A DNA stretch of 64,000 bases, taken from assembly GCA_002722245.1 (NCBI GenBank), contig PBLA01000001.1:22292-86291 (forward strand). The letters are read 5' to 3'. The stretch's first letter is position 1; every line of letters starts with the position of its first letter. Source of the DNA: Flavobacteriales bacterium (lineage in GTDB: Bacteria > Bacteroidota > Bacteroidia > Flavobacteriales_C > GCA-002722245). A model generated the notes under the pieces. The model was not told where the DNA came from. It saw only the letters and a program-made list of their open reading frames with translations, and searched no databases. Below are positions 1,310 through 55,933 of this stretch, piece by piece. Both the position numbers and the translations under genes were made by a program.

Positions 1310-1318
1310 ACGGGTATT

Positions 1319-1891: not shown

Positions 1892-1964
1892 ACTGTATCT
1901 TTTTAAAATCTACTGCATTATACTAGTGGTTGAGTAAACCAACTGCCTTATATACATAAAGATA

Positions 1965-1995
1965 AAGCGCCCTTCGTCCGGGGCGCTTTTTTATT
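1965..1995 (+). terminator. rho-independent terminator after rluE
   Basis: GC-rich stem AAGCGCCC (1965-1972) pairs with GGGCGCTT (1981-1988) around an 8-nt loop and is followed by TTTTTATTTTTAT. It stands out in this AT-rich background. Confidence 0.55.
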
Positions 1996-2104
1996 TTTAT
2001 CTCTGATTTTTTAGTGAGTGTGCTTTAAAAAGACATTTGAATACTTCAAATACGGATATAATGGATGCCTTAAACATTGTATATTTGCATCAAATTTTGA
2101 AGTT

Positions 2105-11710: not shown

Positions 11711-11713
11711 GAT

Positions 11714-12244: not shown

Positions 12245-12284
12245 GGGTTGTCTTTAAACTATTAATGTAACAAATATGCAGATT

Positions 12285-21700: not shown

Positions 21701-23414
21701 AAACGATTTCAATGTTGTCATAATCTCCTTTCTTTGATTTGGCATTCATCCATTCAAATAATCTGTCTTGAACGGTGACTATTCCTTCTTCAATATTGTA
21801 AATTAGGAATCCTTTTGCGGCTAATCGTACACAAAGTCGTTGAACAGATTGGTAGTCTTTCCGAATATAATTGGCTAAATCAGCATCTTTAAAAGTGCGT
21901 TCTTCAAAGTTTTCGTCCATTACAAATTTCTTAATACTGTATAAAGGGTGTACACTTTGTAAACCTTGCATTTGCATGAATTTGTCGTTGGAAAAGAAAC
22001 TGTTTGATTCCAATCGCATTATACCAGAACTGGATCCCGGTATCGTTAGGAAGTCCATGTAATCCTTGTCAATTTGCCATTTTAACCACTCGATTTCCAT
22101 ATCCATTCTGTGAAAGGTGTTATAATAGGGTGACGCGCCAATTCCTTTCCCTTCGCAATAGAGGGTAAGTTCTCTTTTATTTGTAAGGAATTTCAATTGA
22201 AGGGCAGGATGGAAGATAGAATCCGTGTCAAGTGCCATGGTTATTGCGGCATAACGGGTTGCAATTCTTTTGTCATCAATTTTAAAGGATTGAGATTTTG
22301 CGATGAGAAATGGCTTGCCATGTCGTTTGATGGTGATTTTAGCAAGTTTTCCATCTACGATTTTACCAATGAAGTTTTTTCCTTTGATCATGAATCCTCC
22401 TTCATAATCTAAGCTGTCTTCGATTTCTTCAATTAATACTTTACCTGAATAGGATTCAAAACGAGGATAGGTAGCATTGTTGGTATCCACATTCGCTAAA
22501 AGTTTTTCTTCTAGCTTACCTTTGAGCATGTAGTCAAAGTATTTGGTGTTTTTATAATCTACTGAATCAGCTTTGTATTTAGAGGATTTTAACTCAATTG
22601 TATACTCGCTTAATTCGGCATAAGATTGTTCCTCGGGTATTCCTGCGCGGGTCCATAATACGCGTCCACCTTTTCCTTTCCATTTTCCTGTGGTAGGATA
22701 AAACGCTCCTTTTGTATTGTATATTCTGGCGGTGTCATTTTTTGCCACGCAATACAGATCCATGCGTGGAAAAACAACTTTTGGTAAACTGTCATAATCA
22801 AATGAAAATGTTGGTGAGGTTCCCTGCCATTTTACATTTTGAGTCACGTATACAGAGTTGTATAAAAAGATATTATTACAATTTGTAAGAAATACAGTGA
22901 AATATCGCTTTTTGTCGTCAATGAGCTTATTCACAGTGATATTCCATGCGTCAAAGGAATCTTCTGATTGAAAAGTGGTGAAAAAACTGATTACGGAGTA
23001 GAGGTAAATTTTAAAATCAGGGATGGCTTTCATCCGCTTTTTTAACATCTTATTACACATCATAATAATCATTTGAATTTGGTAGTTGTTCAACTTTCCA
23101 CTTTCAAAACCATAAACAAATGTGCTGGATGCGTTTAATTTCTTGAGTCTTTTTTGATAAACTAAATTGGCAATTTTATATATTTTTTCTTCTTGTTTCG
23201 GTTTTACAAGGTCCATTGGCCAAAGTGCTCTAAATTCGGCCATGATTAAGTCTGCCTCTTCCTCACTGGTTTTTCGAATAAATCCCTCTAATTCTTCAAT
23301 GAATTGCTCTTTATCATTGGAAAATTGCTTAAATGTTTGCCCTTGAAGTCCAAAACAGCAAAGAGCAATTATTGAGGTTATTATTATTTTTTTGTAAAAG
23401 CCAGGCATAACCAA
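18759..23414 (-). CDS. very large (1551 aa) secreted protein of unknown function
   Basis: Uninterrupted 4.6-kb ORF with an N-terminal signal peptide (KKIIITSIIALCCFGLQGQ). Composition is K/D/F/Y-rich with no catalytic motifs recognised. Its 5' end overlaps the prmA 3' end by about 30 bp. Confidence 0.5.
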   Translation of the reverse strand: MVMPGFYKKIIITSIIALCCFGLQGQTFKQFSNDKEQFIEELEGFIRKTSEEEADLIMAEFRALWPMDLVKPKQEEKIYKIANLVYQKRLKKLNASSTFVYGFESGKLNNYQIQMIIMMCNKMLKKRMKAIPDFKIYLYSVISFFTTFQSEDSFDAWNITVNKLIDDKKRYFTVFLTNCNNIFLYNSVYVTQNVKWQGTSPTFSFDYDSLPKVVFPRMDLYCVAKNDTARIYNTKGAFYPTTGKWKGKGGRVLWTRAGIPEEQSYAELSEYTIELKSSKYKADSVDYKNTKYFDYMLKGKLEEKLLANVDTNNATYPRFESYSGKVLIEEIEDSLDYEGGFMIKGKNFIGKIVDGKLAKITIKRHGKPFLIAKSQSFKIDDKRIATRYAAITMALDTDSIFHPALQLKFLTNKRELTLYCEGKGIGASPYYNTFHRMDMEIEWLKWQIDKDYMDFLTIPGSSSGIMRLESNSFFSNDKFMQMQGLQSVHPLYSIKKFVMDENFEERTFKDADLANYIRKDYQSVQRLCVRLAAKGFLIYNIEEGIVTVQDRLFEWMNAKSKKGDYDNIEIVSDIKGEANASMNLINYDITLRGVNGVALSRARKTGFIPENQTLKIHRNRAMSFGGIIRSERFEFWGKNFEFNYDDFGIGLNELDSVRLKAGMLDKSKWRTRADGKLQVPITMVRSVIEDISGKLEIDWPFNKSGILSDSFPQYPLFHSDKKSYVRYNKRNLRGKAYDPDKVYFQLDTFTVDSMGTFSDKALNFPGTFYSGGIFPDFREPLKLMPDHSLGFKRKTPPEGYPVYGGKATFYNEINLSNQGLMGDGDFEYITSTTKSNAFVFYLDSMNAPAQSSIIEPQKSGVEYPKVEGQKVNVAYYSSDDYFKMAKREIPMKMYDDKAFMHGVLRYDPKELTGKGRIEFENADLKSQIFEFQNMTFNADTSDFKLKADTLTSEGENGGIAFATNDVNAKIDFIKREGEFLANGGASFVDFPMNKYICFMDKFKWFMDKYELELSSSEKSKKTTDAGAQEGRDDLDLSGSEFISTLPSQDSLRFISPKANYDLRKYIIKAHEVKFINVADARVFTSDGEVEVRKNANMKPLEDAKIIANITTKYHTITKAKVKVIARRDYTAEGDYEYVDGKGKKQLIHFNNVRVDSAYQTVASGDIKEDDKFMLSDHFHFKGTSKIEATKKGMNFRGATYLQHDCKKLAKAWIGFESDIDPANVLIPVEEGIQAWLPGKAKGTKLGSGVLLKVDSTHLYSAFLSPQKYHSDNSLISAHGFLNYNEKEDEYQLSNKEKLRESNFPGNFVALNTQMCSVRGEGKIQLGNEKLGQVNFTNYGVVNHDPFTNGVKVDGALAVDFFLDEKMWTHMLDNMLGNPKLEPVDNTRLVYGKAIREMAGKELGDKLVSELNLYGAFKKVAKEVRHNIMFSDVKMEWDQTTQSFKSQGNKIGIGVIDKKQVNKFVNGHIELVRKKTRERLTIYIEIDEETWYFFDYNNGVMRVISSDAAFNAIITELKPDKREFKGPKEKGPYSFMLGTERSMRKFKSRMSK

Positions 23415-30157: not shown

Positions 30158-30733
30158 ATGATTGATTTACTTCTACATATTGATCATGATTTATTCACAT
30201 TTTTAAATGGATTGCATTCGGCCTGGATGGATCCTATTCAGTACTGGATCAGTAATAAATTTATTTGGATTCCTTTTTATGCTTTTTTGTTGTTTCTTCT
30301 TTTTAAACACTATAAAAAAAGAGCTGTTTTAGCCGTTGTTTTTATTGTTTCGCTGATTACTTCAACGGATCAGTTGTCAGGTTTTTCTAAACGGTATGCT
30401 GGTAGATACCGGCCGTGCAGAGAGGAGTCATGGCATCGTCCTCGGCCACATCTTGTGGATAATCACTGCGGAGGAGCTTACGGCTTTTTTAGTGCGCATG
30501 CCTCTAGTGCATTTGGGCTAGCTGTATTTGTGGGTACGCTTCTCATGCCTGTGTTTAACCATGCGCGAAAGTATATGTTGTTTTGGGCGGCAATCGTAGC
30601 TTATAGTAGAGTGTATCTAGGTGTACATTATCCCTCTGATATTTTTGTTGGAGCCTTAGTTGGCTTGTTTTTAGGATTTCTTTTTACAGCGCTCTTTAAA
30701 TGGCTCAGTCAAGTGGAGTTTAGTTCAAAATAG
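30158..30733 (+). CDS. PAP2-family phosphatase (phosphatidic acid / undecaprenyl-PP phosphatase-like)
   Basis: KRYAGRYRP, FFSAHASSAF and YSRVYLGVHYPSD acid-phosphatase motifs in a membrane protein. Confidence 0.75.
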   Translation: MIDLLLHIDHDLFTFLNGLHSAWMDPIQYWISNKFIWIPFYAFLLFLLFKHYKKRAVLAVVFIVSLITSTDQLSGFSKRYAGRYRPCREESWHRPRPHLVDNHCGGAYGFFSAHASSAFGLAVFVGTLLMPVFNHARKYMLFWAAIVAYSRVYLGVHYPSDIFVGALVGLFLGFLFTALFKWLSQVEFSSK

Positions 30734-32261
30734 CTTTTCTTGAAAAGTCTGATTTATTTTTTACCCAAGATTTAATGAACTCTTTTTTCATATCATTTTC
30801 TGAGTTTTCTATTTCTTCGAGTCTGTTGTGTAATTGTTTAAATTGAATCTTTTGAAGAGTGTCATCACCGAAACATATAAGTAGTTTGTGAAACGTTTTA
30901 GAGAGTTCTTTTAAAATATCATTGCTAGCATCACATTTTTGAAGGGCGCGTTCAAGGTTTTTTGATGAAGATTCAAACAATTCGAAATTTTTAGATTCTA
31001 GATAAACAATGGTCGTAAGTAGTTTTTTAGAATGAATCATATTTTGATAATCCAAATTGTCTGACTTAAGAATGATGTTCTTTAAACTGCCTAAAACACC
31101 TTTGTTTCTTCCACATCTTAATTGAGCCCAAGCTAAATTAATGAGCAGAGTATTGTGAAGACTTGTGCCTAATTTTGTTCTTTTATTTAGCACAAAATCC
31201 TCAACTTTTTTAACCTGTAAAAAGATTTTGTTCAAGTCGTTTTGAATTAAGTAAAACTCCTGTTCTATATTCAAAAAGTATCCGTAATCGCTGTTTTTAC
31301 TATAATAAGTAATGGTGTTGTCATTGAAAAAAATATTACTTTTTTCTAAAAACAATGCTATTTCATTGTTTTTATTCTGATTCTTTAAGTAGTTTATTTT
31401 AAAGAATAATGCATGGATGTATTTTGTTGGCAGGAGCTTTATTTGTAATTCATTAGAGTGAAATAATAATAGGATTTTATCCACAAATTTCTCTGCTTCA
31501 ACAAGATTATTAGTTAGCTCATAGTAGTTTCTTAATGAATTGTAATACAGTAGTTTATTGTGTTTTAACTCTATTTTCTCTTTAGGCTGTGTAATGTCTT
31601 TTAAACGAAGGTTGTTTTGAGGTTCAACAATACCGGAAGATGCTTGCTTATTGTTTGAGATGGCAAGCATATCCAGATTGTTGTTGTAAATTTCGTTATT
31701 GAGTTGAATTGCTTTGCTCAGCTTTGCTTGGTCATGTTTAAAAGCTGATAATTCATCCCAATTCGGAAATTCATTCATTTTTGCTAAACAATGCAGTTTT
31801 AACCTTTTAATTTCTTGTGTTGAACCCAATAACCCAATCTCATTTGACAGTTCTTCTGCTTTCTTTAGCTTTCTTAAGGCTTGATGATATAAGCCTTTGT
31901 TTTGAAGAATTTCAACAGCGTCTATAATTCTTCTTACTCGTACGGAAGGAAGTGTATCAGCGTTATAAAATGTTAAACTTTTCACAACCAATTCGTACAA
32001 ATATTTTTTTAAGGAAGGATATCTCTTTTCTATTGGAGTTCCTTTAAATTTTTCTTTAATGGCTTCCTCATTGAATACTTCTTGCTTATCAATTTCTTCA
32101 AATAAACGGATATAATCATTTTTCTTGCTAGGCGTTTGTTGTTTGGCCAATAATTTAAAATATCTTTTTTCCGTTTGAGAAAGGTTTTTAATGAGTTCGT
32201 GTAGGTAATTTTGAACTTTAGGTTTTGTCATTAAAGAATAGTTAGGGGCGAGTAGCTTCAA
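30720..32261 (-). CDS. hypothetical all-alpha (TPR-like?) protein
   Basis: 513 aa with no signal peptide and helical, low-complexity K/N/L-rich sequence. No motif recognised. Confidence 0.35.
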   Translation of the reverse strand: MKLLAPNYSLMTKPKVQNYLHELIKNLSQTEKRYFKLLAKQQTPSKKNDYIRLFEEIDKQEVFNEEAIKEKFKGTPIEKRYPSLKKYLYELVVKSLTFYNADTLPSVRVRRIIDAVEILQNKGLYHQALRKLKKAEELSNEIGLLGSTQEIKRLKLHCLAKMNEFPNWDELSAFKHDQAKLSKAIQLNNEIYNNNLDMLAISNNKQASSGIVEPQNNLRLKDITQPKEKIELKHNKLLYYNSLRNYYELTNNLVEAEKFVDKILLLFHSNELQIKLLPTKYIHALFFKINYLKNQNKNNEIALFLEKSNIFFNDNTITYYSKNSDYGYFLNIEQEFYLIQNDLNKIFLQVKKVEDFVLNKRTKLGTSLHNTLLINLAWAQLRCGRNKGVLGSLKNIILKSDNLDYQNMIHSKKLLTTIVYLESKNFELFESSSKNLERALQKCDASNDILKELSKTFHKLLICFGDDTLQKIQFKQLHNRLEEIENSENDMKKEFIKSWVKNKSDFSRKAILN

Positions 32262-34016: not shown

Positions 34017-35981
34017 ATGAGATTTCAAAAACTACTTATTATAGCAGCTTTATTTGGAAGTACTTTTGTGAGTGCTCAATCCAAAAAAATTAACCCTCAA
34101 TTAGAGGATGAATGGTTGATAGCGATAAATGGTGATACCATCACAGCTGGTGATTTTTGGTATGCTTTTGTGAAAAATGCCGATGAGGAAAAGCCCATAA
34201 ATCTTGATTCATTAAAGAAATACAAAAAACTTTATGACAAATTTCTACTTAAGGTTACTGAAGCGAAATCATTAGGATATGATACCACGCCAAAGTTTTT
34301 AAAGGAATTTAAAGGGTATAAAAATCAGTTGGCCGAGTCTTATTTGAAAGATAAATCGGTAACGGACAAATTAATACAAGAGGCATTTGATCGATCAAGA
34401 ATTGATGTTGAAGCCAGTCATATTTTGGTTAAGGTTCCTTACGATGCTATGCCTGAGGATACACTTAAGGCATTTGAAAAAGCATTAAGCATCATGAATA
34501 AGGCTAATAATGGAGTAGATTTTACCCTTTTAGCAAAAAAGTATTCTGATGATAATGGTGGTAAAAATGGCGGTTACCTTGGTTATTTTTCAGTTTTAAG
34601 AATGGTTTATCCCTTTGAAAATATGGCTTACAACACAAAACCGGGTGAAATTAGTAAGCCGTTTAGATCGCGTTTTGGATATCATATCATAAAGGTTCAT
34701 TCTAATCGAAAAGCGGTAGGTGAGGTAAAGGTGGCTCATATTATGACAATTGCCAAAGAGGGAATGGATCCGAAAAAATTAGTAGATGCTGAAAAAAATA
34801 TTAGAGAGATTTATGAAATGGTTAAAGAAGGTAAAAATTTCGCCGAATTAGCGCGTAAATTCTCAGAGGATTTAAACACATCAAATAGAGGAGGAGAATT
34901 ACCTTGGTTTGGACCGAATAAATTTTTACCTGAGTTTGAAAATGCAGCATTTAGTTTAGCGAATAATGGGGATGTATCCGAACCTGTTAAAACACCTTAT
35001 GGTTGGCACATTATTAAACGCATTGATCGTAAAGAATTATCGTCTTATGATGATATGAAAAATGAACTTCGAAATAAAGTGTCGCGATCCGATAGAGCTG
35101 CCTTAAGTAAAACTGTTGTGATCAATAGGATTAAAAAGGAGTATGAATTTATCGAGTATCGATCTGGAATTGATAATTTTTACACATTCTGTGACACCAC
35201 GTTAATTACAGCAAAATGGAAAGCTCCAGCAGATAAAGAACTTACTGATAAAATGTTTGATTTTGCGGGCGTTACGTATACTCAAAAGGAATTTGCTGAG
35301 TATTTAGCCCAAACCTTGGTTCCTAAAAAAGGAGGGAGCTTTCAAAGAATTGTGCAATATTCATATGAAAATTGGATGACTGATATTATTGAAAGTCATG
35401 AAAAAAGTTTGTTGACTACAAAATACCCAGATTATGGTCGTCTCTTAAGAGAATATAAAGATGGAATTATTTTGTTTGATTTAACAAGTGAAAAGGTATG
35501 GAATAAATCTGTTGTTGATACCGCAGGGTTAAGAGCTTTTCATAACGATATAAAGGATCAATGGCAGTGGAATGAACGTATGGATGGTGTTGTATATAAG
35601 TGTATTGATGAGGCAACAGCAGTAGCAGTAAGGAAATTACTTAAAAAAGGACGAGGTGATGATGTGATTTTGGAGAATATAAATGTGGATTCTAAGCTTA
35701 ATGTAAGAGTAGAGGCAGGAGTTTATGAAGCGAAGTCACGCCCTGAGCTCAATGGATTGAAGTTTAAAAAAGGTGTTTCAAAAGTGTTGAATCAGAATGG
35801 TAATTTTATTGTTTTGAAGGTTGATAAAGTGTTACCAGTTGAATCAAAATCATTGAGTGAGGTAAAAGGAATGGTTACTGCTAAATACCAGGATTATCTA
35901 ATGGATGTTTGGCTAAAGGAGTTGAGAGAAAAATATGAGATTGTATATAACGATGATGTGTTTAAGCAATTAGCTCCTTGA
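34017..35981 (+). CDS. PpiC-type peptidyl-prolyl cis-trans isomerase (SurA/PrsA-like, long form)
   Basis: Signal peptide. Two parvulin-type motifs (EASHILVKV...FGYHIIKV and ...GWHIIKRI). Confidence 0.7.
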   Translation: MRFQKLLIIAALFGSTFVSAQSKKINPQLEDEWLIAINGDTITAGDFWYAFVKNADEEKPINLDSLKKYKKLYDKFLLKVTEAKSLGYDTTPKFLKEFKGYKNQLAESYLKDKSVTDKLIQEAFDRSRIDVEASHILVKVPYDAMPEDTLKAFEKALSIMNKANNGVDFTLLAKKYSDDNGGKNGGYLGYFSVLRMVYPFENMAYNTKPGEISKPFRSRFGYHIIKVHSNRKAVGEVKVAHIMTIAKEGMDPKKLVDAEKNIREIYEMVKEGKNFAELARKFSEDLNTSNRGGELPWFGPNKFLPEFENAAFSLANNGDVSEPVKTPYGWHIIKRIDRKELSSYDDMKNELRNKVSRSDRAALSKTVVINRIKKEYEFIEYRSGIDNFYTFCDTTLITAKWKAPADKELTDKMFDFAGVTYTQKEFAEYLAQTLVPKKGGSFQRIVQYSYENWMTDIIESHEKSLLTTKYPDYGRLLREYKDGIILFDLTSEKVWNKSVVDTAGLRAFHNDIKDQWQWNERMDGVVYKCIDEATAVAVRKLLKKGRGDDVILENINVDSKLNVRVEAGVYEAKSRPELNGLKFKKGVSKVLNQNGNFIVLKVDKVLPVESKSLSEVKGMVTAKYQDYLMDVWLKELREKYEIVYNDDVFKQLAP

Positions 35982-36877
35982 TGATGAATTATAAAAACTA
36001 TAAATGCTTCAAGGCTACCCTTAAAAGGTGGCCTTTTATGCTTATTATGGTTTTAGTTTTAACAAATTGTAGTGAACGTAAAGGAATTGGAAAATCTAAA
36101 GGTGAACTTATTGCAGAAGTTGGAGAACACCGGTTAACTGCCGACGAATTGGTGAAAGTGTTTGGAGATCAATGGCGTCAAAAGCATGAAAAGGTTAAGG
36201 ACTTTGTTAGAATTTGGGTAAAAGATAAAGTGGTAGGGGTTGTGGCTGAAAAGCAACTTGCTGAAGAAGATAAAGATTTTAAGGAAGAAATTATTGCTTA
36301 CAAAAACTCTTTGCTGAAGTATACATTTGAACAAAAAATGTTGGACTCTGCATTATCCTTAGTTGTAGATGAACAGGAGATTGCGGAATATTTACAAAAG
36401 AACAAAAAGAACTTTCAGTTGAAAGAAAATATTGTTCGAGTGCGGTACGTTAAAGTCCCCAAAAAGCATAAAAAACTTAACCAGCTTCGATATATGATTC
36501 AATATAAAGATTCGTTAAGGAAAGAAAAGTTTTTTGATTTAATTCAAAAAGAAAATATTTTTTGTGAAGCAAACGATAGTGTATGGCATAAGCTTGATGA
36601 CTTAAAGAATTTAATTCCATTTAAATTATATAATGATGAGCATTTTTTAAGACATTATAATTACACCGAAGCACCTGATGGAGATTTTATTTGGGTTATA
36701 TATTTTTCGGAAAATCGTTTAAAGAAAGGGGTTTCTCCATTGGAAATGGTGAGGGATCAAATTCAAGCAATTATTATTAACAGGCGAAAACAAAAGCTCA
36801 TCCAAGAGTTTGAAAAATCACTTTACCTTGATGCATTAAAAAACAAGGATATTAAAATATATGCAGATTATGAATAA
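35978..36877 (+). CDS. hypothetical protein, possibly SurA-N-like chaperone domain
   Basis: N-terminal hydrophobic segment. No PPIase signature. It is sandwiched between two parvulin genes, sharing 4 bp with the upstream gene (ATGA at 35978) and 17 bp with the downstream one (36861-36877). Confidence 0.35.
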   Translation: MMMNYKNYKCFKATLKRWPFMLIMVLVLTNCSERKGIGKSKGELIAEVGEHRLTADELVKVFGDQWRQKHEKVKDFVRIWVKDKVVGVVAEKQLAEEDKDFKEEIIAYKNSLLKYTFEQKMLDSALSLVVDEQEIAEYLQKNKKNFQLKENIVRVRYVKVPKKHKKLNQLRYMIQYKDSLRKEKFFDLIQKENIFCEANDSVWHKLDDLKNLIPFKLYNDEHFLRHYNYTEAPDGDFIWVIYFSENRLKKGVSPLEMVRDQIQAIIINRRKQKLIQEFEKSLYLDALKNKDIKIYADYE

Positions 36878-41250: not shown

Positions 41251-42087
41251 TTAAGTCAATGATTTTTTTCTCACCTTTTGCCAACCTAAAACGCTGAAAA
41301 GTCCTAATCCCATTAATACACCAATAGCAGGAACTGTAGGTATATCGAGAAATAGCGCAATAAAGTGACCACAGATACAACTCATAATACCAAAGCAAAC
41401 AGCAATGATCAAAAATGGTTTAAGTTTTTGAGTTATGACATGCGCAAATGATGCAGGTACAACTAATAATCCAATGACCATTATTGCTCCAACACTATCG
41501 AAACTATATACTGTGGAAACGCTTGACAGACCCAAAAGAAGATAGTTCCAAAAAGGAATAGAAATCCCTATAGATTTCGCGTATGCTTGATCAAAGCTGG
41601 TTAATTTAAAGCCTTTCAATCCCAGTAAAACAATAGGAGCTGTGATTAAAGAAATAATAATCAAATTAAAAGTAGGAGTGGGTATTCCCCATGTTTTAGG
41701 AACGATAGGGATCGTGTTAATGTCGCCAAATAAGACGCAGTCCACATCAATATCAGCATTTTTTGCTTGTGAAGTAATGAGTATAATTCCAATTGCAAAA
41801 AGGAGTGTGTAAATAATTCCAATTGAACTATCTTTTCCAAAACCTCCTATTCGATTCAACCACTCAATTAACAAAATAGCGATAATCCCAAATCCACTTG
41901 CACCAAGAAGCATCCAGAAAGAGTTGATTTCACCTGAAATCATAAAAGCAATAACAATACCAGGTAAAACAGCATGAGATAAGGCATCACCAATAAGACT
42001 CATTTTTCGAAGTACAAGAAAACTTCCCAGTAAACTGGAGTTTATGCCGATAATGCATGCAGTGAGTATAATCCAAAAATCAAACAT
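41251..42087 (-). CDS. metal (Mn/Zn/Fe) ABC transporter permease
   Basis: ABC-3 family topology with LLGSFLVLRKMSLIGDALSHAVLPGIV. About 278 aa. Confidence 0.85.
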   Translation of the reverse strand: MFDFWIILTACIIGINSSLLGSFLVLRKMSLIGDALSHAVLPGIVIAFMISGEINSFWMLLGASGFGIIAILLIEWLNRIGGFGKDSSIGIIYTLLFAIGIILITSQAKNADIDVDCVLFGDINTIPIVPKTWGIPTPTFNLIIISLITAPIVLLGLKGFKLTSFDQAYAKSIGISIPFWNYLLLGLSSVSTVYSFDSVGAIMVIGLLVVPASFAHVITQKLKPFLIIAVCFGIMSCICGHFIALFLDIPTVPAIGVLMGLGLFSVLGWQKVRKKSLT

Positions 42088-43439
42088 TAGTCTTCGTAAG
42101 GGATATTTTGTTGATGCGGATCGCTCGTTGGCCTCCCCAGTGTTTTTAATAATTCTGTTTCAAGGGATTTAGTCATGATGTGCTCAATGGATTCAGCACT
42201 TTCATGAACATGATCGGATTGTATTTGCATAAACTTTTCCATGTAAAGCTCCCACAATCTATGTATCCTAATAATTCTCTTTGCCTCTGCAATTCCTTTT
42301 TCAGTAAGCGTCCAAGCCCCATTCGCTTCAATTACAAACTTTTTTCTTTTTAAGATACTCAACCCTTTACTGAGATCAAAAGAAGCAAAAGGATGAAAAT
42401 TTTGAATCATTTGAACAGAATAACTTTGATCAAATTGGTTTTTGTGTTCACCTAATTTATACAGCGTTTTTAGGACATTATCCGAGATTATTTTATTTCG
42501 GTTTTGAATCCCCATTATTTTTTTTGTGATTAATCCCTTTCGAGATAGTAATGCGGACAAAATAGCGATGGTGGATAGTACTACAATAATCCAGGGGCCT
42601 GTAGGCATGTCTGGAAACAGATAGGAAACAAAAACACCCAAAATACTGCTTAAAGCTGCAAACGCACCAGACAATAAAATAGATTTTTTAAAGTGGTTGG
42701 TCCAGAAAAATGCAGAAGAGGCAGGAGTAATAATTAATGCACTCATCAGAATTATTCCAACTGTTTGAATTCCAATAGCAGTGCTCACGATAATTAATCC
42801 TGAAATTAGACTTTGAACAAGTTTGTTATTTAAACCAATTGTGTTTGCAAATCCCTGATCAAACAATGCAATTTTGAAGTGTCTATAAAATAAAATAACA
42901 ACCCCTAAAACAAGTCCACATAATCCACAAAAGAGATAGAGGTCTTTTCGAACAATCGTAGCTGCTTTTCCAAACAGAAAATCAGAAAGACCACTCTGCT
43001 GACTATTTCCTGAGTGTTGTATAATACTTAACAAAATAACACCTAAACTAAAGAGCACTGATAAGGCAATTGCAATGGCTGCATCTTTTTTAATTCGTGA
43101 GATTTTTGTTAACCAGTCTACAAGGAATACGGCAATTGCTCCAGCAAACATTCCTCCAGCTATTAAATAAATTGGATTTTTAACCCCAGAGAGCATAAAT
43201 CCTAAACATACACCTGGTAAAACAGAGTGGGAAACGGCATCAACAATTAATGCTTTTTTATTTAAAACAACTAAAACCCCTACAATACCGCACGTAAAAC
43301 CTAAAATTAACGTTCCAAAAAAAACGTTCGAAATATTGGCGTCTTGAAAAGAAAAAAAATAAATAAAATCGTCCCAAAATTTCATGTTACTCTCGAATTG
43401 GAAATTGTCGTTGTTTGTATACTTCACCCAATTGCTCAA
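42087..43439 (-). CDS. metal ABC transporter permease fused to a C-terminal DtxR/MntR-like regulator domain
   Basis: The N-terminal ~300 aa are an ABC-3 permease (IVDAVSHSVLPGV). The C-terminal ~150 aa are hydrophilic, with an HTH-like stretch and RIHRLWELYMEKF...HESAESIEHI. This parallels RKHRLWEVFLVEKLKFGWDEIHEIAEQLEHI of the adjacent stand-alone DtxR regulator. Confidence 0.7.
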   Translation of the reverse strand: MSNWVKYTNNDNFQFESNMKFWDDFIYFFSFQDANISNVFFGTLILGFTCGIVGVLVVLNKKALIVDAVSHSVLPGVCLGFMLSGVKNPIYLIAGGMFAGAIAVFLVDWLTKISRIKKDAAIAIALSVLFSLGVILLSIIQHSGNSQQSGLSDFLFGKAATIVRKDLYLFCGLCGLVLGVVILFYRHFKIALFDQGFANTIGLNNKLVQSLISGLIIVSTAIGIQTVGIILMSALIITPASSAFFWTNHFKKSILLSGAFAALSSILGVFVSYLFPDMPTGPWIIVVLSTIAILSALLSRKGLITKKIMGIQNRNKIISDNVLKTLYKLGEHKNQFDQSYSVQMIQNFHPFASFDLSKGLSILKRKKFVIEANGAWTLTEKGIAEAKRIIRIHRLWELYMEKFMQIQSDHVHESAESIEHIMTKSLETELLKTLGRPTSDPHQQNIPYED

Positions 43440-44172
43440 GAATACTCAGATTACCTCCGTAAGTTTTTTGCAGAAGTTCAGTAGTATATACGTCGTTAGT
43501 GGGACCACTCGCAACGATTCGTTTGTTAATAAGAACCATCCAATCAAAATATTCCATTGCAGATTGAAGGTCGTGATGAACAACAAAAATTGTTTTTCCT
43601 TCCTGTTGAAGCGTTAAAAGAAGATCAACAATTGCTTTTTCACTGGCCATATCAACACCAGCAAAAGGCTCATCCATGAAGTACAAATCTGCCTCTTGAG
43701 CCAAAGCTCGGGCAATGAATACACGTTGTTGTTGTCCACCAGAAAGAGCCGAAATATGATGCTTTGCGAAATCCATCATTTTTACTTTTTTAAGCGCATC
43801 AATAGCAATTTGTTTATCCTGTTTTGTTAGGCGTTTGAAAAGACTTTTTTTACCATATCTTCCCATTTCTACAACATCAAGGACAGTTGCAGGAAAATCC
43901 CAGTCAACCGATTCTTTCTGGGGTACATAAGCTATTTTTTGTCGAACCTTTTTTAAAGGTTGATTAAAGATTTTTACATAACCACTTGCTGATGGAACAA
44001 GTTCCATCATGGCTTTTAATAGGGTGGATTTACCCGCACCATTTGGCCCTATAATACCGACCATTTTCCCCTTAGGAATGTTAAAATCCACATTCCATAA
44101 TACGGGTTTATTATTATAGGCAACCGTTAAATCGTGAATTTCAACAATAGCCTCTTCTACATGCTTAATCAT
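43387..44172 (-). CDS. metal ABC transporter ATP-binding protein
   Basis: Walker A GPNGAGKST, ABC signature LSGGQQQR and Walker B LYFMDEP. Confidence 0.88.
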   Translation of the reverse strand: MIKHVEEAIVEIHDLTVAYNNKPVLWNVDFNIPKGKMVGIIGPNGAGKSTLLKAMMELVPSASGYVKIFNQPLKKVRQKIAYVPQKESVDWDFPATVLDVVEMGRYGKKSLFKRLTKQDKQIAIDALKKVKMMDFAKHHISALSGGQQQRVFIARALAQEADLYFMDEPFAGVDMASEKAIVDLLLTLQQEGKTIFVVHHDLQSAMEYFDWMVLINKRIVASGPTNDVYTTELLQKTYGGNLSILEQLGEVYKQRQFPIRE

Positions 44173-45113
44173 TTGCTTAATGCGCTAACAATTGTTTGGG
44201 TATTTTTTTTAATCATTTTAATGTAGGTTTCTGCACCACTTTGAGCATCACCTAAACCATCGCTGTAGAGCGTTCCACCAATTTTTAGGTCTAGTCCTTT
44301 TGATCGGCACCCTTCAATGATTGCATTGATATTTTTTCTAGAAACAGAATTTTCTATGAAAATGGCAGGGATTTTTCTACTTACTATAAGATCAGTTAAT
44401 TCTGTTATTCCGCGAACAGAAATATCGGATGCGGTTGATATACCTTGTACACCTTTTACTTCAATACCAAATGCTCGTCCATAATATCCGAATGCATCGT
44501 GCGCTGTAATCAACACCCTAATTGAATCAGGTATTTTATTCATTTCACGTTTAACATAAAGTTCAGTGGCTAATAATTTTTTTGTGTAGGATTTTGTTGC
44601 AGAATCAATATAGTTTTGATGAATAGGGAATTTTTTGGAAAATTCTTTTCCTACAAGTTCTACGGATGTTGCAAATAAATTAACATCATGCCAAAAATGT
44701 GGGTCATGAGCTGTTCCAAACTCTGTAGTTGCTCTTAATCTTTCCTCAGGTACAATTTCTCCGAGTTTAACCACATGACGAGATTTTCCTATTTCATCAA
44801 TAGCATCCAGCAAGTTAGATTCAAAGTGAATACCATTACAGGCAACAGATTCTGCGTTTAACATCGCTTTCATTTCAGATGCTTTACTCTTGTAGGTATG
44901 GGGGTCAACTCCAGGACCCATTAATGCTTCGATTTCAAAGGGTGTAGGAGGAAGGATGTTCTTCATAGCATCAGCAATTACACCTGTTGTACAAATTACA
45001 TGAACGCTCGAAGATGACATCTTATTTTCATGCGATGAACATCCAATTATAATAAGAATGGAAAGAAGGGGAAGATAAAGCAGGTTTTTCATATTATTTT
45101 TCTTTGGAAACAT
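44169..45113 (-). CDS. metal ABC transporter substrate-binding lipoprotein (TroA/ZnuA/MntC family)
   Basis: Signal peptide with lipobox (IIGCSS). Cluster-9 SBP length, with conserved HDPHFWHD and AHDAFGY metal-site regions. Confidence 0.8.
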   Translation of the reverse strand: MFPKKNNMKNLLYLPLLSILIIIGCSSHENKMSSSSVHVICTTGVIADAMKNILPPTPFEIEALMGPGVDPHTYKSKASEMKAMLNAESVACNGIHFESNLLDAIDEIGKSRHVVKLGEIVPEERLRATTEFGTAHDPHFWHDVNLFATSVELVGKEFSKKFPIHQNYIDSATKSYTKKLLATELYVKREMNKIPDSIRVLITAHDAFGYYGRAFGIEVKGVQGISTASDISVRGITELTDLIVSRKIPAIFIENSVSRKNINAIIEGCRSKGLDLKIGGTLYSDGLGDAQSGAETYIKMIKKNTQTIVSALSK

Positions 45114-45756
45114 TAAGGTTTTTAGCCACTAATTCTGAAAATGTCCGTTCAGTTTTTTGATTGACCAAAACTTTTAAGGACTTGTCAAATTGAAAGAAAT
45201 CTAAAATTTCAATGGATGAACCCAGTTTGAGGTCGATACTATCTAAATATCTTAAGAAATCTTTGGAGTCTTCAGAGACACCAATTAAAATTGATTTTTC
45301 ACCAATTGATAAATCATTTAATTTGTATTTTTTTAGAGTATGAAACTCGCCTTTTTTGTTTGGAATGGGATCACCATGAGGATCGTTTTTTGGATATCCC
45401 AAGTGCTCGTCCAATTTATCAATAAGTTTTGCGGATTTAATGTGCTCCAATTGCTCAGCAATTTCATGAATTTCATCCCATCCGAATTTAAGTTTCTCTA
45501 CCAAAAAAACTTCCCACAAACGATGTTTTCTTATTACATGTAATGCAATTTGTTCACCTTCTTTTGAAAGTGTTGTTCCTTGATATTTTATATAGTTTAC
45601 TAAACCTTTGTCGGCCAATTTTTTTACCATATCGGATACCGAGGAAGCTTTTGTAGAGAGCTCTTCAGCAATTGCATTGGTGGAAACTCCTTCTTTTGAT
45701 GGTCCGCTTAACTTAAAAATTGCTTTTAGATAATCTTCGGTGGTACTGGTTTGCAT
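45094..45756 (-). CDS. DtxR/MntR-family metal-dependent transcriptional regulator with C-terminal FeoA/SH3-like domain
   Basis: N-terminal wHTH (EDYLKAIFKL), a metal-binding/dimerisation region (RKHRLWEVF...HEIAEQLEH...DPHGDPIP) and a C-terminal SH3-like extension. It is first in the transporter operon. Confidence 0.8.
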   Translation of the reverse strand: MQTSTTEDYLKAIFKLSGPSKEGVSTNAIAEELSTKASSVSDMVKKLADKGLVNYIKYQGTTLSKEGEQIALHVIRKHRLWEVFLVEKLKFGWDEIHEIAEQLEHIKSAKLIDKLDEHLGYPKNDPHGDPIPNKKGEFHTLKKYKLNDLSIGEKSILIGVSEDSKDFLRYLDSIDLKLGSSIEILDFFQFDKSLKVLVNQKTERTFSELVAKNLNVSKEK

Positions 45757-48254: not shown

Positions 48255-48608
48255 TTTTTTTTTCATTGTTTGAGTAAGTCTGAGCTCCCCTTTTATTCAT
48301 GGTGTTCTACCAAAAATATTTACACATTTGATTCCTTTATTTAGTGGTTATGAAATTTAAACAGTTGTAACCCAACGATTAACACGACGTATCAAAAGAT
48401 GACAATTGGATTGTAATGTAAATTATATTCCTCTTAATATTTGATTTTTTTTGAAAACGACTTGAACAAGCTATTCAAAATGTGTTTTTTCTGATCAACT
48501 GTTTATGCAGTGGTGGTTATGAAGTGTTTTTAAAAATCAGAAAATCTTTCATTAGAGTAGTTTTTTAATTGTGTTATCAAATTAAAACTTAACTAAAACT
48601 CTAGTATC

Positions 48609-49337
48609 ATGGAAAATTTATTTTTAACAGCAACTTTAGAAGCGGGGGACTATGTAGGGTTTACCTTCTTCATCGGTAGTATGGCCATGCTAGCCGCTAC
48701 TGTATTTTTCTTTCTAGAAATGAAATCAGTTTCTGGAAAGTGGAGAACGTCACTATTGGTGTCGGGATTAATTACATTTATTGCCGCAGTGCATTATTAT
48801 TACATGCGGGATTTCTGGGTGGAAAACAAAACCTCACCAACAGAATTTCGATATATTGACTGGATTCTAACGGTTCCTTTGATGTGTGTTGAATTCTATT
48901 TAATTCTTAAAGCATTTGGAGCAAAAAAAGGGTTGCTTTGGAAAATGATTTTTTACTCGGTATGGATGTTAGTTACCGGTTATTTAGGTGAAACCGTTTT
49001 CAGAGAATCAAGCGCAACTTGGGGTGCCATTTCAACAATTGGTTATTTAGGTATATTTTATGAAGTATGGTTTGGATCTGCTAAGCAACTATCCAACAAT
49101 TCAAACAATCCTACTCTACAAAAAGCGTTTAGTGCACTTGCATGGTTTATTTTTGCAGGATGGGCTATTTATCCAATTGGATACATGACAATTCCAGGTG
49201 GGTTATTAAGTGGAGCATTACCTGCGGAATCAATGGATATCATTTATAACATTGGTGATGCAATTAACAAAATTGGATTTGGATTGGTTATTTATAGTTT
49301 AGCGATAAATAGCACAAATGAAACCTCTGCTGCATAA
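48609..49337 (+). CDS. proteorhodopsin (light-driven proton pump, DTE motif, Met at tuning position)
   Basis: Seven TM helices. Helix C RYIDWILTVPLMCVEFY aligns to PR RYIDWLLTVPLLICEFY, giving proton acceptor D, T and proton donor E, with Met at the position-105 spectral-tuning site. Helix G DIIYNIGDAINKIGFGLVIY carries the Schiff-base lysine. Confidence 0.9.
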   Translation: MENLFLTATLEAGDYVGFTFFIGSMAMLAATVFFFLEMKSVSGKWRTSLLVSGLITFIAAVHYYYMRDFWVENKTSPTEFRYIDWILTVPLMCVEFYLILKAFGAKKGLLWKMIFYSVWMLVTGYLGETVFRESSATWGAISTIGYLGIFYEVWFGSAKQLSNNSNNPTLQKAFSALAWFIFAGWAIYPIGYMTIPGGLLSGALPAESMDIIYNIGDAINKIGFGLVIYSLAINSTNETSAA

Positions 49338-49381
49338 TCAATCTAATGGAAGGATAATTTTTTTAAAAAATTCATAAATAA

Positions 49382-49417
49382 AAAACCGAAGCAAAATTTG
49401 TTTCGGTTTTTTGTTTT
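49382..49417. terminator. bidirectional rho-independent terminator between rhodopsin (+) and hydrolase (-)
   Basis: AAAACCGAAGCAAA / TTTGTTTCGGTTTT near-perfect inverted repeat, flanked by an A-run upstream and a T-run downstream. Confidence 0.55.
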
Positions 49418-49430
49418 AATAAAAAAACAT

Positions 49431-50489
49431 CTAATGATGCATTACTTTAGAGAGTAGTAAGCTTTGCACCATGCTATTTTCTGTTTTTTGATAATGGGAA
49501 CTGCAATACGTCATATGGCCGTATCCGATATTTTCATTTTTAAATTGAACATTACTGCCTTGAGATGTATAATAATTTGCTAACCACTGACCAATTACAG
49601 GTGGGCAAAGGTTATCATCCGATGCATGCCAAATACTTATGTTTTTTGTTTTGATTAATCTTGGATCGAACCCCCAATCATAACATACATCCTTTGCAGA
49701 TTCCCAACATATTCCTGCTGAACCTCTTTTGACACATCGTTCAACAGAACAGGACAACATCCTAATCAATGCGGTGTCTTGTTCCATATTATCGCACGAG
49801 TATACTAATGTTTTAACAGGTAAACTAGGGGAGAAGAGGTCGGTTGTTATATAAAAGGTAAAAAACATCCACGCGTTTAGCGGATGCTTTAATTGTTCGG
49901 TTGTTTTAAATTGGTCATGTCCCAAAGCTCCTTCAATATTTAATTCCTGTGTTAAATTGTTCGGCAATAAAGGGGCGTTTAAACCCAGTGCAGTACATCG
50001 TTCTTTATAAAAAAAGGCGGCAGCCATAGCATGGGGAGTTCCTTGAGAGTGCCCCGAAATCATAAAATGATCAATGTTTTCTTGTTCTAAAACAGCATAA
50101 AGGTCTTCGGATGCCCATTCAATAACTTTCCGTCCAATTTTCAAATCTGTATTTCCACATCCGGGTAGTGAAATGGATATGCCTCTTACATTTAATTCCT
50201 CACAAGATTTTTGGTGTATTAATTTTTCAAATGTGGCATCTAGCCCAGATCCATGAATATTAATTATCACGGGTGTGTTTGGGTCATTACTACCGTACGT
50301 AAAGTATTCAATTTTTCGTCCATTTGTATCTAAAGCAAGCTTTCCGCCTTCCGCTATCAATTGCTCTCGATTAATTTTAGATTGTCCATTACGTTTTATT
50401 ATAATTCCGCCTATTGTAAAAATCAAAAACAAACATAATCCTCCAATTATAGAATATTTACAAATTTTTTTTAATCTTTTCATATTCAA
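49431..50489 (-). CDS. membrane-anchored alpha/beta hydrolase
   Basis: N-terminal TM helix and a nucleophile elbow GHSQG, with an HG oxyanion region (INIHGSG). Confidence 0.6.
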   Translation of the reverse strand: MNMKRLKKICKYSIIGGLCLFLIFTIGGIIIKRNGQSKINREQLIAEGGKLALDTNGRKIEYFTYGSNDPNTPVIINIHGSGLDATFEKLIHQKSCEELNVRGISISLPGCGNTDLKIGRKVIEWASEDLYAVLEQENIDHFMISGHSQGTPHAMAAAFFYKERCTALGLNAPLLPNNLTQELNIEGALGHDQFKTTEQLKHPLNAWMFFTFYITTDLFSPSLPVKTLVYSCDNMEQDTALIRMLSCSVERCVKRGSAGICWESAKDVCYDWGFDPRLIKTKNISIWHASDDNLCPPVIGQWLANYYTSQGSNVQFKNENIGYGHMTYCSSHYQKTENSMVQSLLLSKVMHH

Positions 50490-50984: not shown

Positions 50985-51398
50985 TTATTGAATTTCTATC
51001 CCTTCGTTGATTCGATGTTTTACAATAAAAGAATTTCCGCAGGCAAGTTTATGGGCCAATTTAGTGCCAGGTTGTACAACTCGCCAAAAAGGGGTGATGA
51101 ATCCGATATCTTTTCCATTTAGAAACTCCTCATAGGCAGCTTCAGCAACTATTCTTAAAAAAATACCTGTGGTTACAGGGCATGTTTTATGGGCATTGTA
51201 GGTAAGTGCTAAATCTTTTCTCATTGTTTTTAAATCACTTTGCCTACTAAAAGAAATGTTTTTAATGTAATCATCGATTATTGGCGGAGAAACAATTAGC
51301 ATTTTTGAACCTTCAGGTATATCCGCAAATGTTTTATTAATGATTTTTATTTGAAAGGATTTCTCACAATCTCGTTTTTCAATCCATGACTTAGGCAT
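50985..51398 (-). CDS. MGMT-family / alkyltransferase-like DNA-binding protein lacking the catalytic cysteine
   Basis: SFQIKIINKTFADIPEG resembles the FPQRVWQxVxxIPxG start of MGMT/ATL domains. ITPFWRVVQPGTKLA aligns with VPCHRVIGRNGTMT, with Cys replaced by Phe and His by Trp. The assignment is tentative. Confidence 0.35.
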   Translation of the reverse strand: MPKSWIEKRDCEKSFQIKIINKTFADIPEGSKMLIVSPPIIDDYIKNISFSRQSDLKTMRKDLALTYNAHKTCPVTTGIFLRIVAEAAYEEFLNGKDIGFITPFWRVVQPGTKLAHKLACGNSFIVKHRINEGIEIQ

Positions 51399-51451: not shown

Positions 51452-51964
51452 TTAGTTCAAATTATAGAAGAAATCTTCATCAGATTGCGCTTGTTCTTTT
51501 ATTCCTGCAAGCGCTCGGATCATAATTCCTTTGATTTGTGTGTTTACGAGAAGCCATGTTAGAGGGTTAAAAAGTTTGTTTTTGGAATAGTAAGTGTATG
51601 TGTAAGTAACTTTTATTTTTCTATTCTCTAATTCCTCAACAGACCACTCGCCAATAGCTTTTTTAATAAAAAACAAACTATTAAACTCAAAATCATAGAG
51701 TGTCCATCTCCAATATTTATTTTCAACTCGTTCAAGAATGACATCCTTAAACATTCTTCCTTTTTTAACTAGAAGGTTTCCGTTATTCATTGGGTACCTT
51801 ATTCCGTTTATTTTACCCCAAGTCTCGTCTTCTTCAAAACCTGTAACAGGAGGTTGGAATAAATAGCCCTTCATAAAACGAGTTGCATCTCCCAAGATAG
51901 GTGCTTTAAATGCTCGCTCTCTACTGCATTCAAAAATGTCTTTTAGTTGATAACTGTACTGCAT
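51452..51964 (-). CDS. hypothetical protein, possibly SRPBCC (Bet v1-like) fold
   Basis: 170 aa soluble protein. Weak resemblance only. Confidence 0.3.
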   Translation of the reverse strand: MQYSYQLKDIFECSRERAFKAPILGDATRFMKGYLFQPPVTGFEEDETWGKINGIRYPMNNGNLLVKKGRMFKDVILERVENKYWRWTLYDFEFNSLFFIKKAIGEWSVEELENRKIKVTYTYTYYSKNKLFNPLTWLLVNTQIKGIMIRALAGIKEQAQSDEDFFYNLN

Positions 51965-54155: not shown

Positions 54156-54872
54156 TTAAATAGACATTAATTCCTTGAACCTTGAGGTTTGTCTTCTTGA
54201 AATTTCCAGTTTCTCTCCACTTTTTAAGGTAACCCTTAAACCGCCATTAAACCAAGCCTCAACTTTGTCAATCCACGTTAGGTTAATAATGTATTTTCTG
54301 GATATTCTAAAGAATTCTTTGTCATTTAAACGTTTTTCTAGGTTGTTTAATGACTTTAGAATCATAGGTTTACTTTCTTCAAAGTAAAGTCTTACATAAT
54401 TACCCTCAGATTCGAACATACGTACTTTGTCCATCTTAACAAACCAGCATTTTTCACCATCTTTGATGAAAATTTGTGAATCATAAGTAAGTTTATCGTC
54501 TGAGTTACTTGATTTGGATTCCTTTTCATCTTCTTTTACCTTTTCAATTGCTTTTTCAAGTCGATTAAGTTCAACCGGTTTAAGCACGTAATCGAGCGCA
54601 TTTACCTCGAACGCTTTTAGCGCGTATTCGTCGTAAGCAGTTACAAAAATGATATTAGGCACGATGTGTAGGTGTTCTAGTACTTCAAAACCGGTCATAC
54701 CAGGCATTTGGATATCAAGAAAAACTAAATCAGGATTTAATTCTTCAATTTTTTCAATTGCTTCCTCGCCATTTGTGGCCTCACCAATGATTTCAATTTC
54801 TGGAAATTTTTCCAAAAGTCTTGTGAGTTCTGTTCTTGCGAGTCGTTCATCATCAACTAATAAAGCTTTCAT
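54156..54872 (-). CDS. LytTR-family response regulator
   Basis: Receiver domain (MKALLVDDE...DLVFLDIQMPGMTGFEV) plus a C-terminal LytTR DNA-binding domain. Confidence 0.88.
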   Translation of the reverse strand: MKALLVDDERLARTELTRLLEKFPEIEIIGEATNGEEAIEKIEELNPDLVFLDIQMPGMTGFEVLEHLHIVPNIIFVTAYDEYALKAFEVNALDYVLKPVELNRLEKAIEKVKEDEKESKSSNSDDKLTYDSQIFIKDGEKCWFVKMDKVRMFESEGNYVRLYFEESKPMILKSLNNLEKRLNDKEFFRISRKYIINLTWIDKVEAWFNGGLRVTLKSGEKLEISRRQTSRFKELMSI

Positions 54873-55933
54873 ATTATATTTTTAGGGATTTTCAGTGTAG
54901 TAATAACCTCTTGGCTATTTAAATTTTGGATTTGAAATGATGCACGATCTTCAAAAATAAAGTTTAATCGTTGCTTACTGTTTTCAATACCAAATCCATT
55001 GGCGTCTTCGTTATGTTTAATTTTCGGATTGTACTGACCCGAATTAATAATTTCCATAATTAAAAACTCATTAGTAGAAGTAGAATTAATAATTAATCTA
55101 CCGCCATCAATTAATCGACTTATACCATGTTTAATCGCATTTTCGGCCAGAGTCTGGATTAACATTGGCGGAATATGATAGTTTAAACAAGAAGGTGAGG
55201 TATTGATTTCATAATACAAGCGCTCTTCCAAACGAATTTTTTCAAGATTTAAATAATCTTTTACCAATTTCAATTCTTCTTCAATTGTAATTAAACTTCT
55301 TTTTTCAAGCGTTAACGTATGACGAAGAATATTACTTAATTGAGTAATACCCTCTTTTGCTTTTTCAGTATCCTCATCAATCAAAGCTCTTAAACCATTC
55401 ATACTGTTAAATATGAAATGTGGATTCAATTGTGATTTAAATTTATTTAATTGAATTTCTTTTAATTTACTCTGTTGTGTTAAATTTTTAATTTCCTCTT
55501 TTTTAAAATTCCTAAAAAAGTAAACCGCAAAATAGAGTATTCCCCAAATAAAATAAACAGTACTGAACGTAGCGGACTGGGCTAAAAATTCGGCCAAAGT
55601 AATATCCTTAACCGATCCATTGTACCAACTTAATCGAATGAGGTATAATAAAAGAATATTTAGTGTTCCAACAATTAAACTTAGAATGGCCAGTTTATGA
55701 AATATTCTTGTAATTCCTTCATTACGCCATTGATATAAATTAAAGATGTATCGAACGAAATGAGAACAGCCAATACCTAACAAAACAAGGAAAATGGAAT
55801 AATAAATATCATTTTTACTAATTGTTCCCTTTGAAAGATAGTTGAATAAAAGATTAGCAAGTGTAAAGGCGGTCCAGCCTAATACTTGCAAGCTCAAATA
55901 CATTTGTTTTTTCTTAGAGATCATTAAGTACAA
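54869..55933 (-). CDS. LytS-like sensor histidine kinase (His_kinase/PF06580 type)
   Basis: Four to five N-terminal TM helices, H-box QLNPHFIFNSMNGLRALI and a C-terminal HATPase region. Overlaps the regulator gene by 4 bp. Confidence 0.8.
   Translation of the reverse strand: MYLMISKKKQMYLSLQVLGWTAFTLANLLFNYLSKGTISKNDIYYSIFLVLLGIGCSHFVRYIFNLYQWRNEGITRIFHKLAILSLIVGTLNILLLYLIRLSWYNGSVKDITLAEFLAQSATFSTVYFIWGILYFAVYFFRNFKKEEIKNLTQQSKLKEIQLNKFKSQLNPHFIFNSMNGLRALIDEDTEKAKEGITQLSNILRHTLTLEKRSLITIEEELKLVKDYLNLEKIRLEERLYYEINTSPSCLNYHIPPMLIQTLAENAIKHGISRLIDGGRLIINSTSTNEFLIMEIINSGQYNPKIKHNEDANGFGIENSKQRLNFIFEDRASFQIQNLNSQEVITTLKIPKNII

Follow-up and report, generated by a model that had tools for sequence, protein, structure and literature searches.

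The stretch of DNA analysed here (the window) comprises 64,000 nucleotides of contig PBLA01000001.1 from a Flavobacteriales bacterium (assembly GCA_002722245.1, forward-strand positions 22,292 to 86,291), and its subject is the proteorhodopsin (PR) gene at window positions 48609..49337. A first-pass annotation, made from the letters alone, had described this gene as a flavobacterial-type green PR with the DTE triad of a proton pump. Having compared the gene with its relatives and surveyed its surroundings, we are highly confident that it encodes a green-absorbing, light-driven proton-pumping PR, very probably equipped with a carotenoid antenna and drawing its retinal from elsewhere. The coding sequence and the codons of the main functional residues, with equivalents in the green PR of SAR86 (GPR) where helpful, are:

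48609..49337, plus strand: PR coding sequence, 242 amino acids (aa) plus TAA stop (open reading frame listing, Pfam, PDB phmmer, AlphaFold model)
48792..48794, plus strand: His62 codon CAT (GPR His75), the PR-clade histidine pairing with the primary proton acceptor (alignment, invariance)
48858..48893, plus strand: functional core of helix C, with Asp84 (GAC), Thr88 (ACG), Met92 (ATG) and Glu95 (GAA) (sequence read, alignment, invariance)
49023..49025, plus strand: Gly139 codon GGT, the fenestration position (alignment, invariance)
49257..49271, plus strand: helix G motif DAINK, with Asp217, Asn220 and Lys221 (AAA) (sequence, alignment, invariance)

The open reading frame (ORF) starts with ATG, its translation is the protein quoted in the first-pass annotation, and no other ORF of at least 60 aa crosses 48609..49337 on either strand. 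Placement of the 242-aa protein in the PR clade of type-1 rhodopsins was borne out by the profile and similarity searches against rhodopsins that had been proposed as a check. Pfam family PF01036 (Bac_rhodopsin) matches residues 17-234 at 151.6 bits (E = 2.9e-44; gathering cut-off 24.6 bits), no NCBIfam model matches the protein, and a phmmer search against all PDB chains recovered 81 distinct rhodopsin sequences. The top matches are 9jov and 9jou ('Proteorhodopsin'; E ~2e-86, residues 8-239), followed by green PR (8cnk, 2l6x and 7b03; about 2e-56, the first two over residues 9-237), blue PR (4knf, 4kly and 4jq6; about 6e-50 to 1e-54), the Exiguobacterium rhodopsin ESR (4e-33) and xanthorhodopsins (1e-23 to 1e-28), with the Na+ and Cl- pumps KR2 and ClR at only about 1e-11. 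Judged by these scores, the similarity to rhodopsins is far beyond chance, and no other family of rhodopsins comes as near to the protein as the characterised PRs do. In Foldseek, 9jou carries the label 'zeaxanthin-bound light-driven proton pumping rhodopsin, NM-R1', and its numbering (D87/T91/E98) is consistent with the Nonlabens marinus paper (10.1101/2024.11.08.622755).

Functional residues were assigned from a MAFFT alignment of the query with three references, GPR, bacteriorhodopsin (BR) and NM-R1. The GPR and NM-R1 sequences came from the phmmer alignments, and the GPR sequence was completed with its signal peptide. Helix C of the query reads FRYIDWILTVPLMCVEFY and helix G reads IGDAINKIGFG. 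Residues R81/D84/T88/M92/E95 pair with R94/D97/T101/L105/E108 of GPR and R82/D85/T89/L93/D96 of BR, D217/N220/K221 pair with D227/N230/K231 of GPR and D212/A215/K216 of BR, and H62 falls on GPR H75 and NM-R1 H65, where BR has Met56. A helix-B histidine at this place pairs with the acceptor aspartate and is found in the PR and xanthorhodopsin (XR) clade, not in BR. The retinal-pocket residues W85, M120, G124, W185, Y188, P189 and Y192 are the same as in GPR. By this alignment Asp84 is the predicted proton acceptor and Schiff-base counter-ion, Asp217 the second counter-ion, Glu95 the predicted cytoplasmic proton donor, Met92 the spectral tuning site and Lys221 the predicted retinal Schiff-base lysine. 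The DTE triad, the methionine at GPR position 105 and the helix G lysine are all where the first-pass annotation had put them, and the equivalents of D97, E108 and K231 are D84, E95 and K221.

These residues hardly vary among relatives. Invariance was scored in two sets, the 120 closest database homologues and the PR genes of 80 species-representative genome loci, with the query included in the counts. All 121 sequences of the first set share H62, R81, D84, T88, M92, E95, W185, Y188, P189, Y192, D217, N220 and K221; in the second, where a subset was checked, H62, D84, T88, M92, E95, Y192, D217 and K221 are identical at 81/81 loci. M120 and G124 are invariant in a 32-sequence alignment. There is precedent for reading these residues as those of a green pump: methionine or leucine at GPR position 105 is described in the literature as green-type, and D87/T91/E98 of NM-R1 provide acceptor and donor in a demonstrated proton pump (10.1101/2024.11.08.622755).

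With regard to the N-terminus, the 17-residue signal peptide of GPR lies opposite a gap, query residue 7 pairing with about GPR residue 20. The ORF already begins at the first start codon past the preceding stop and is therefore maximal, so that a signal peptide could not be added by upstream extension. The earlier statement that the protein lacks an N-terminal signal peptide holds by this alignment and by the maximal ORF, no dedicated predictor having been run.

An AlphaFold2 model computed from a 32-sequence alignment (A1) has a mean pLDDT of 83.8 and a pTM of 0.78, and consists of seven long helices preceded by a non-helical, low-confidence segment (residues 1-14):

Residues 15-40, 44-73, 78-102, 107-130, 137-163, 168-192 and 208-241: the seven helices of the PR (AlphaFold model)

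Foldseek returned 9jou_A as the best match to the model (TM 0.81/0.85), which superposes on NM-R1, GPR and blue PR at a TM of about 0.8.

The best solved relative is thus NM-R1 of Nonlabens marinus S1-08 (9jou/9jov; Fujiwara et al., 10.1101/2024.11.08.622755), with 60% identity over residues 8-239. The query resembles it in the DTE triad, the methionine tuning residue, the PR-clade histidine, the fenestration glycine, the pair Y192/M193 (NM-R1 Y194/M195) and the lack of a signal peptide; it differs in that NM-R1 falls outside the clade of the query in our tree and comes from a Flavobacteriaceae host. GPR of SAR86 (EBAC31A08; 2l6x, 7b03 and 8cnk) is 46% identical (E = 2e-56) and shares the DTE triad, the equivalents of His75, Lys231, Asp227 and Asn230 and the retinal-pocket residues. 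Unlike the query, it has Leu105, a bulky Phe closing the fenestration (10.1101/2022.08.24.505090) and a cleavable N-terminal signal peptide. Closer still are PRs from Cytophagales, Saprospiraceae and metagenome-assembled genomes (MAGs) of Schleiferiaceae and Crocinitomicaceae, which are 73-91% identical over the full length and identical in all functional residues. As described by Chazan et al. (10.1101/2022.08.24.505090), KR1 of Dokdonia eikasta, EinA29G6 and TsPR share with the query the glycine at XR position 156, an origin in Bacteroidota and a green-type DTE motif. These three have been shown to bind xanthophylls, whereas for the query binding is predicted from sequence.

That prediction comes from a residue which the first-pass annotation missed, namely Gly139 at the carotenoid-antenna fenestration site. 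In the MAFFT alignment Gly139 corresponds to BR Trp138, xanthorhodopsin Gly156 and NM-R1 Gly142, and glycine occupies this position in 121/121 homologues and at 80 of the 81 loci. Glycine at XR position 156 opens a fenestration, letting a carotenoid ring come into contact with the retinal ring (10.1101/2022.08.24.505090; 10.1101/2024.11.08.622755). There is precedent for antenna binding at such a site: (i) the glycine-bearing KR1, EinA29G6 and TsPR bind zeaxanthin or lutein and pass on 35-40% of the absorbed energy, while GPR, with Phe at the fenestration position, binds no carotenoid (10.1101/2022.08.24.505090); (ii) the NM-R1 structures carry myxol and zeaxanthin at the fenestration site (10.1101/2024.11.08.622755); (iii) Met105 and Gly156 are combined in 'almost all PRs of Bacteroidota' (10.1101/2024.11.08.622755) and (iv) in the literature, those Bacteroidota PRs that were tested bind carotenoids. 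Two ring contacts of NM-R1, Y194 and M195, are kept in the query as Y192 and M193; W138 and G139 are kept as well, and with neighbours included only three of the six ring contacts count as conserved. Given Gly139 at the fenestration site, we consider it probable that the query binds a xanthophyll antenna.

The PR gene is flanked by genes for an M32 carboxypeptidase and an alpha/beta hydrolase (Pfam matches of the window ORFs), and this neighbourhood recurs in the ocean. At least 20 contigs of several marine metagenomes, among them a 93-kb Tara Oceans scaffold and GCA_001040365.1, encode an identical PR protein in an identical gene order (DtxR, Mn/Zn ABC, DUF423, M32 carboxypeptidase, PR, alpha/beta hydrolase). 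The GC content of the gene (36.2%) matches that of the window (35.2%), and there is thus no compositional sign of recent transfer. The ratio of non-synonymous to synonymous divergence (dN/dS) is 0.029 against relative L001 and 0.037 against relative L004, values that are approximate, dS being about 2-3 and near saturation (it is saturated for all relatives except the two closest). The gene is under strong purifying selection. Two further features flank it:

48255..48608, plus strand: 5' intergenic region, 354 bp, AT-rich, the presumed site of the gene's own promoter
49376..49416, no strand assigned: perfect hairpin of 19 bp, bordered on one side by a run of A and on the other by a run of T (RNA fold)

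The hairpin folds at -20.9 kcal/mol (z = -4.5; 0/200 shuffles fold as well). It is probably a bidirectional intrinsic terminator serving both the PR gene on the plus strand and the convergent alpha/beta-hydrolase gene at 49431..50489 on the minus strand; a consensus terminator scan found none and did not call this hairpin. Given the 354-bp upstream spacer and a hairpin end held in common with a convergent gene, the PR gene appears to be monocistronic. Rfam (at the gathering threshold) and ARAGORN returned nothing in the window, and by these searches the gene has neither a riboswitch nor another RNA element beside it. No similarity to the 80 related loci was detected in the intergenic DNA on either side of the gene, so that no conserved regulatory element could be defined, and the exact Bacteroidetes -7 motif TAnnTTTG was not found upstream of the PR, where the region holds only a partial TAGTTTT at 48558.

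The window is a housekeeping region of a chromosome, with genes for ValRS, RF3, TIM, IMPDH, Obg, MnmA, FolP, PlsY, FabI and others. Proteins under the name 'MAG: Flavobacteriales bacterium' match its ValRS at 87-93% identity, and the host is an uncultured marine member of the Flavobacteriales, of a lineage that is not Flavobacteriaceae-like. Among species-representative genomes the best PR matches come from Flavobacteriales MAGs, including Schleiferiaceae and Crocinitomicaceae (86-91%), then from Ekhidna, Cyclobacteriaceae, Roseivirgaceae and Flammeovirgaceae (80-84%) and from Saprospiraceae (73-79%); identity to the Flavobacteriaceae reference NM-R1 is 60%. In a neighbour-joining tree, built without bootstrap and with a single Flavobacteriaceae reference, the query clusters with L001-L004 within Cytophagales sequences and NM-R1 lies outside. 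By sequence the query would thus belong to a broader, Cytophagales-like PR clade of Bacteroidota. The label 'flavobacterial-type' fits the host and the Met105 signature but not the sequence grouping.

The observations that weigh against our reading concern the chromophore, the antenna and the promoter. The 61 window ORFs of at least 120 aa include none that matches PF15461 or any carotenoid-synthesis family in Pfam. A six-frame tblastn search across the window with two probes for blh, the gene of beta-carotene 15,15'-dioxygenase, gave a best E of 2.2, and neither blh nor carotenoid genes were found in the 10 kb beyond the left window edge. As to the antenna, four of the six NM-R1 ring contacts are changed in the query (W139/L143/W201/Y202 to A136/A140/L199/L200, the loop alignment near 199-200 being uncertain), and because most of these contacts differ, antenna binding and carotenoid specificity are to be regarded as uncertain. 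Finally, no promoter was identified upstream of the PR gene, sigma-70-like matches numbering 8 against 6.0 +/- 2.9 in shuffles.

The missing blh stands out against what is found in relatives. The literature describes rhodopsin and blh genes as 'often adjacently coded' (PMC5932025). At L003 and L004 the PR is followed by a beta-carotene 15,15'-dioxygenase gene (PF15461, E ~1e-42), and tblastn with the blh proteins of these two loci as probes placed blh within 1.3 kb of the PR gene at 70 of 80 related loci, usually 50-300 bp away and on the same strand. In most Cytophagales, Saprospiraceae and MAG loci blh is adjacent to and co-oriented with the PR, whereas the window PR has neither a blh neighbour nor synteny with them. 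The closest relatives, L001 and P0007, likewise lack an adjacent blh and have the PR beside a his operon; synteny between the window locus and these relatives was sought and not found. In the sub-lineage of the query, the PR is separated from blh.

Other PRs at 87-88% identity form PR-blh pairs in yet other gene contexts. At L082 (4720-7663), the gene directly upstream of a PR-blh pair has Pfam matches to HTH_38 and, weakly, to the integrase core (rve); the PR of this pair shares 87% identity with the query. The many contexts of near-identical PRs, taken with this HTH_38/rve neighbour, imply that the PR gene has moved repeatedly, and suggest that the PR, with or without blh, is a mobile cassette. 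It is conceivable, if rather unlikely in our estimation, that this abundant population and the relatives L001 and P0007, with the PR moved away from blh, have no recognisable retinal pathway at all and obtain their retinal by scavenging or by some unknown route, and that the small pocket residues A136/A140/L199 (NM-R1 W139/L143/W201) select a carotenoid other than those of the characterised Flavobacteriaceae PRs. A lack of retinal in the host is not shown by our data, because the roughly 74 kb covered are a small part of the genome and because a bacterium without known retinal genes has been shown to make retinal and a functional rhodopsin (PMC7734400).

We regard it as improbable that the opsin is made and is largely non-functional in a genome without a retinal pathway, either as a silent apoprotein or as one that depends wholly on scavenged retinal. 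The failure to find blh or carotenoid genes in about 74 kb, when blh is adjacent at 70/80 related loci, would fit this idea, as would the absence of an adjacent blh in L001 and P0007. However, 74 kb is a small share of a genome in which blh may sit elsewhere, and a dN/dS of about 0.03 together with invariant catalytic residues points to strong selection. The persistence of an identical sequence over many ocean samples argues in the same direction, as does the documented case of retinal and a working rhodopsin without known retinal genes (PMC7734400).

We also considered whether the protein might be a sensory rhodopsin, signalling to a transducer instead of pumping, a reading that automatic JGI annotation would favour ('sensory rhodopsin' for the identical protein P0001 and several homologues) and with which a LytTR/histidine-kinase pair about 5 kb downstream could be reconciled. 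The JGI label is a generic one, since elsewhere this family goes under 'bacteriorhodopsin' or 'rhodopsin'; the adjoining genes encode an M32 carboxypeptidase and an alpha/beta hydrolase, neither of them a transducer or of chemotaxis type. The protein has the signatures of a pump in the carboxylate donor E95, the full DTE triad and His62, and NM-R1, its nearest characterised relative, is a demonstrated proton pump. Taken together, these points make a sensory role very improbable. Least probable of all, and in our view scarcely credible, is a different assignment, either to the Na+ (NDQ) or Cl- (NTQ) pumps or to PR paralogues that carry no retinal, flotillin-associated rhodopsins (FArhodopsins) for instance. 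Such families do occur in marine Bacteroidota or within the PR clade, and stand lower in the list of PDB matches, but the motif here is DTE, and the Na+ and Cl- pumps match at about 1e-11 against 2e-86 for PR; the statement in the first-pass annotation that this is neither an NDQ nor an NTQ pump is upheld by both. FArhodopsins are PR paralogues unable to bind retinal, His84 and Glu120 filling the pocket (10.1101/2025.04.29.651185). At the blocking positions the query has Val89 and Gly124, as GPR has V102 and G138 (the correspondence with PsFAR being inferred from conserved anchor offsets), and no flotillin (Band_7) domain was found by Pfam among the window ORFs. Motif, similarity and gene context also led us to reject a xanthorhodopsin.

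We therefore favor a green-type proton pump, and by homology with GPR and NM-R1 its action can be outlined as follows. The seven-helix membrane protein would hold all-trans retinal on Lys221 as a protonated Schiff base and, for each photon absorbed, export one proton and so add to the proton-motive force. On isomerisation of the retinal, the Schiff base would protonate Asp84, an acceptor that His62, Arg81 and Asp217 tune, and would then regain a proton from Glu95 on the cytoplasmic side. Green absorption would be set by Met92 at the tuning position. In the Gly139 window beside the retinal ring a hydroxylated carotenoid, for example zeaxanthin or a myxol-type xanthophyll, would very probably be bound, and it would hand blue-violet excitation to the retinal as in other Bacteroidota PRs. 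The retinal itself would have to be supplied by a blh at another place in the genome or by the surroundings of the cell.

So understood, the gene is an ordinary green-type, fenestrated Bacteroidota PR with thousands of close relatives and a published template at 60% identity. The Met105 and Gly156 signature of Bacteroidota PRs is already published, and antenna binding has already been described for them. With this gene the host population, which is represented in several ocean metagenomes (Tara Oceans among them), carries a genetic potential for rhodopsin-based phototrophy in which a carotenoid antenna probably takes part. To call the organism a photoheterotroph candidate, as the first-pass annotation did, is reasonable; the suggestion draws on the opsin, blh and carotenoid genes having been found neither in the window nor in the 10 kb beyond it. 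The sole point of research value is the separation of PR from blh, which bears on how bacteria without an obvious retinal pathway obtain the chromophore.

Some further observations were made around the PR loci. About 5 kb from the PR, at 54156..55933 on the minus strand, a LytTR response regulator is paired with a histidine kinase. Such pairs (~30% identity) also lie within 10 kb of the PR in at least 11 Cytophagales or Saprospiraceae loci (L005, L006, L008, L010, L011, L014, L029, L031, L032, L034 and L035), a recurrence that may reflect no more than how common these regulators are in Bacteroidota. In L003, a Schleiferiaceae MAG, a gene two genes upstream of the PR-blh pair (734-2104, minus strand) encodes a protein like vitamin-K-dependent gamma-carboxylase, with HTTM and a VKGC lumenal domain. 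Two metagenome contigs of the same population as the window, L088 and L089, are collinear with it except for an extra 615-aa gene (10837-12684 and 10848-12695, respectively) with DUF8202 and Por_Secre_tail, a type IX secretion signal. Flanked by the counterparts of window ORFs 50985..51398 and 51452..51964, this gene is found neither in the window nor in the Tara scaffold, and is a strain-level insertion or deletion.

Elsewhere in the window, the mechanical ORF of ValRS (2018..4729, plus strand) is GTG-started and 903 aa long; homologues and called genes have 873-874 aa, and the true start is probably about 87 nt downstream. A 1551-aa ORF at 18759..23414 (minus strand) has no Pfam match at E <= 1e-5 and is flanked by PrmA and by a 335-aa ORF likewise without a Pfam match. 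The same lack of a Pfam match applies to ORFs of 513 aa (30720..32261, minus strand) and 299 aa (35978..36877, plus strand), the latter flanked by two PpiC/SurA-type rotamase genes. An uptake operon of the Mn/Zn ABC type at 41251..45756 (minus strand) encodes ZnuA, an ATPase and two ABC-3 permeases, and adjoins a DtxR-family regulator with a FeoA domain. Its second permease (42087..43439) ends in a DtxR-type metal-binding domain (Fe_dep_repr_C), a fusion that is also present in Tara contigs.

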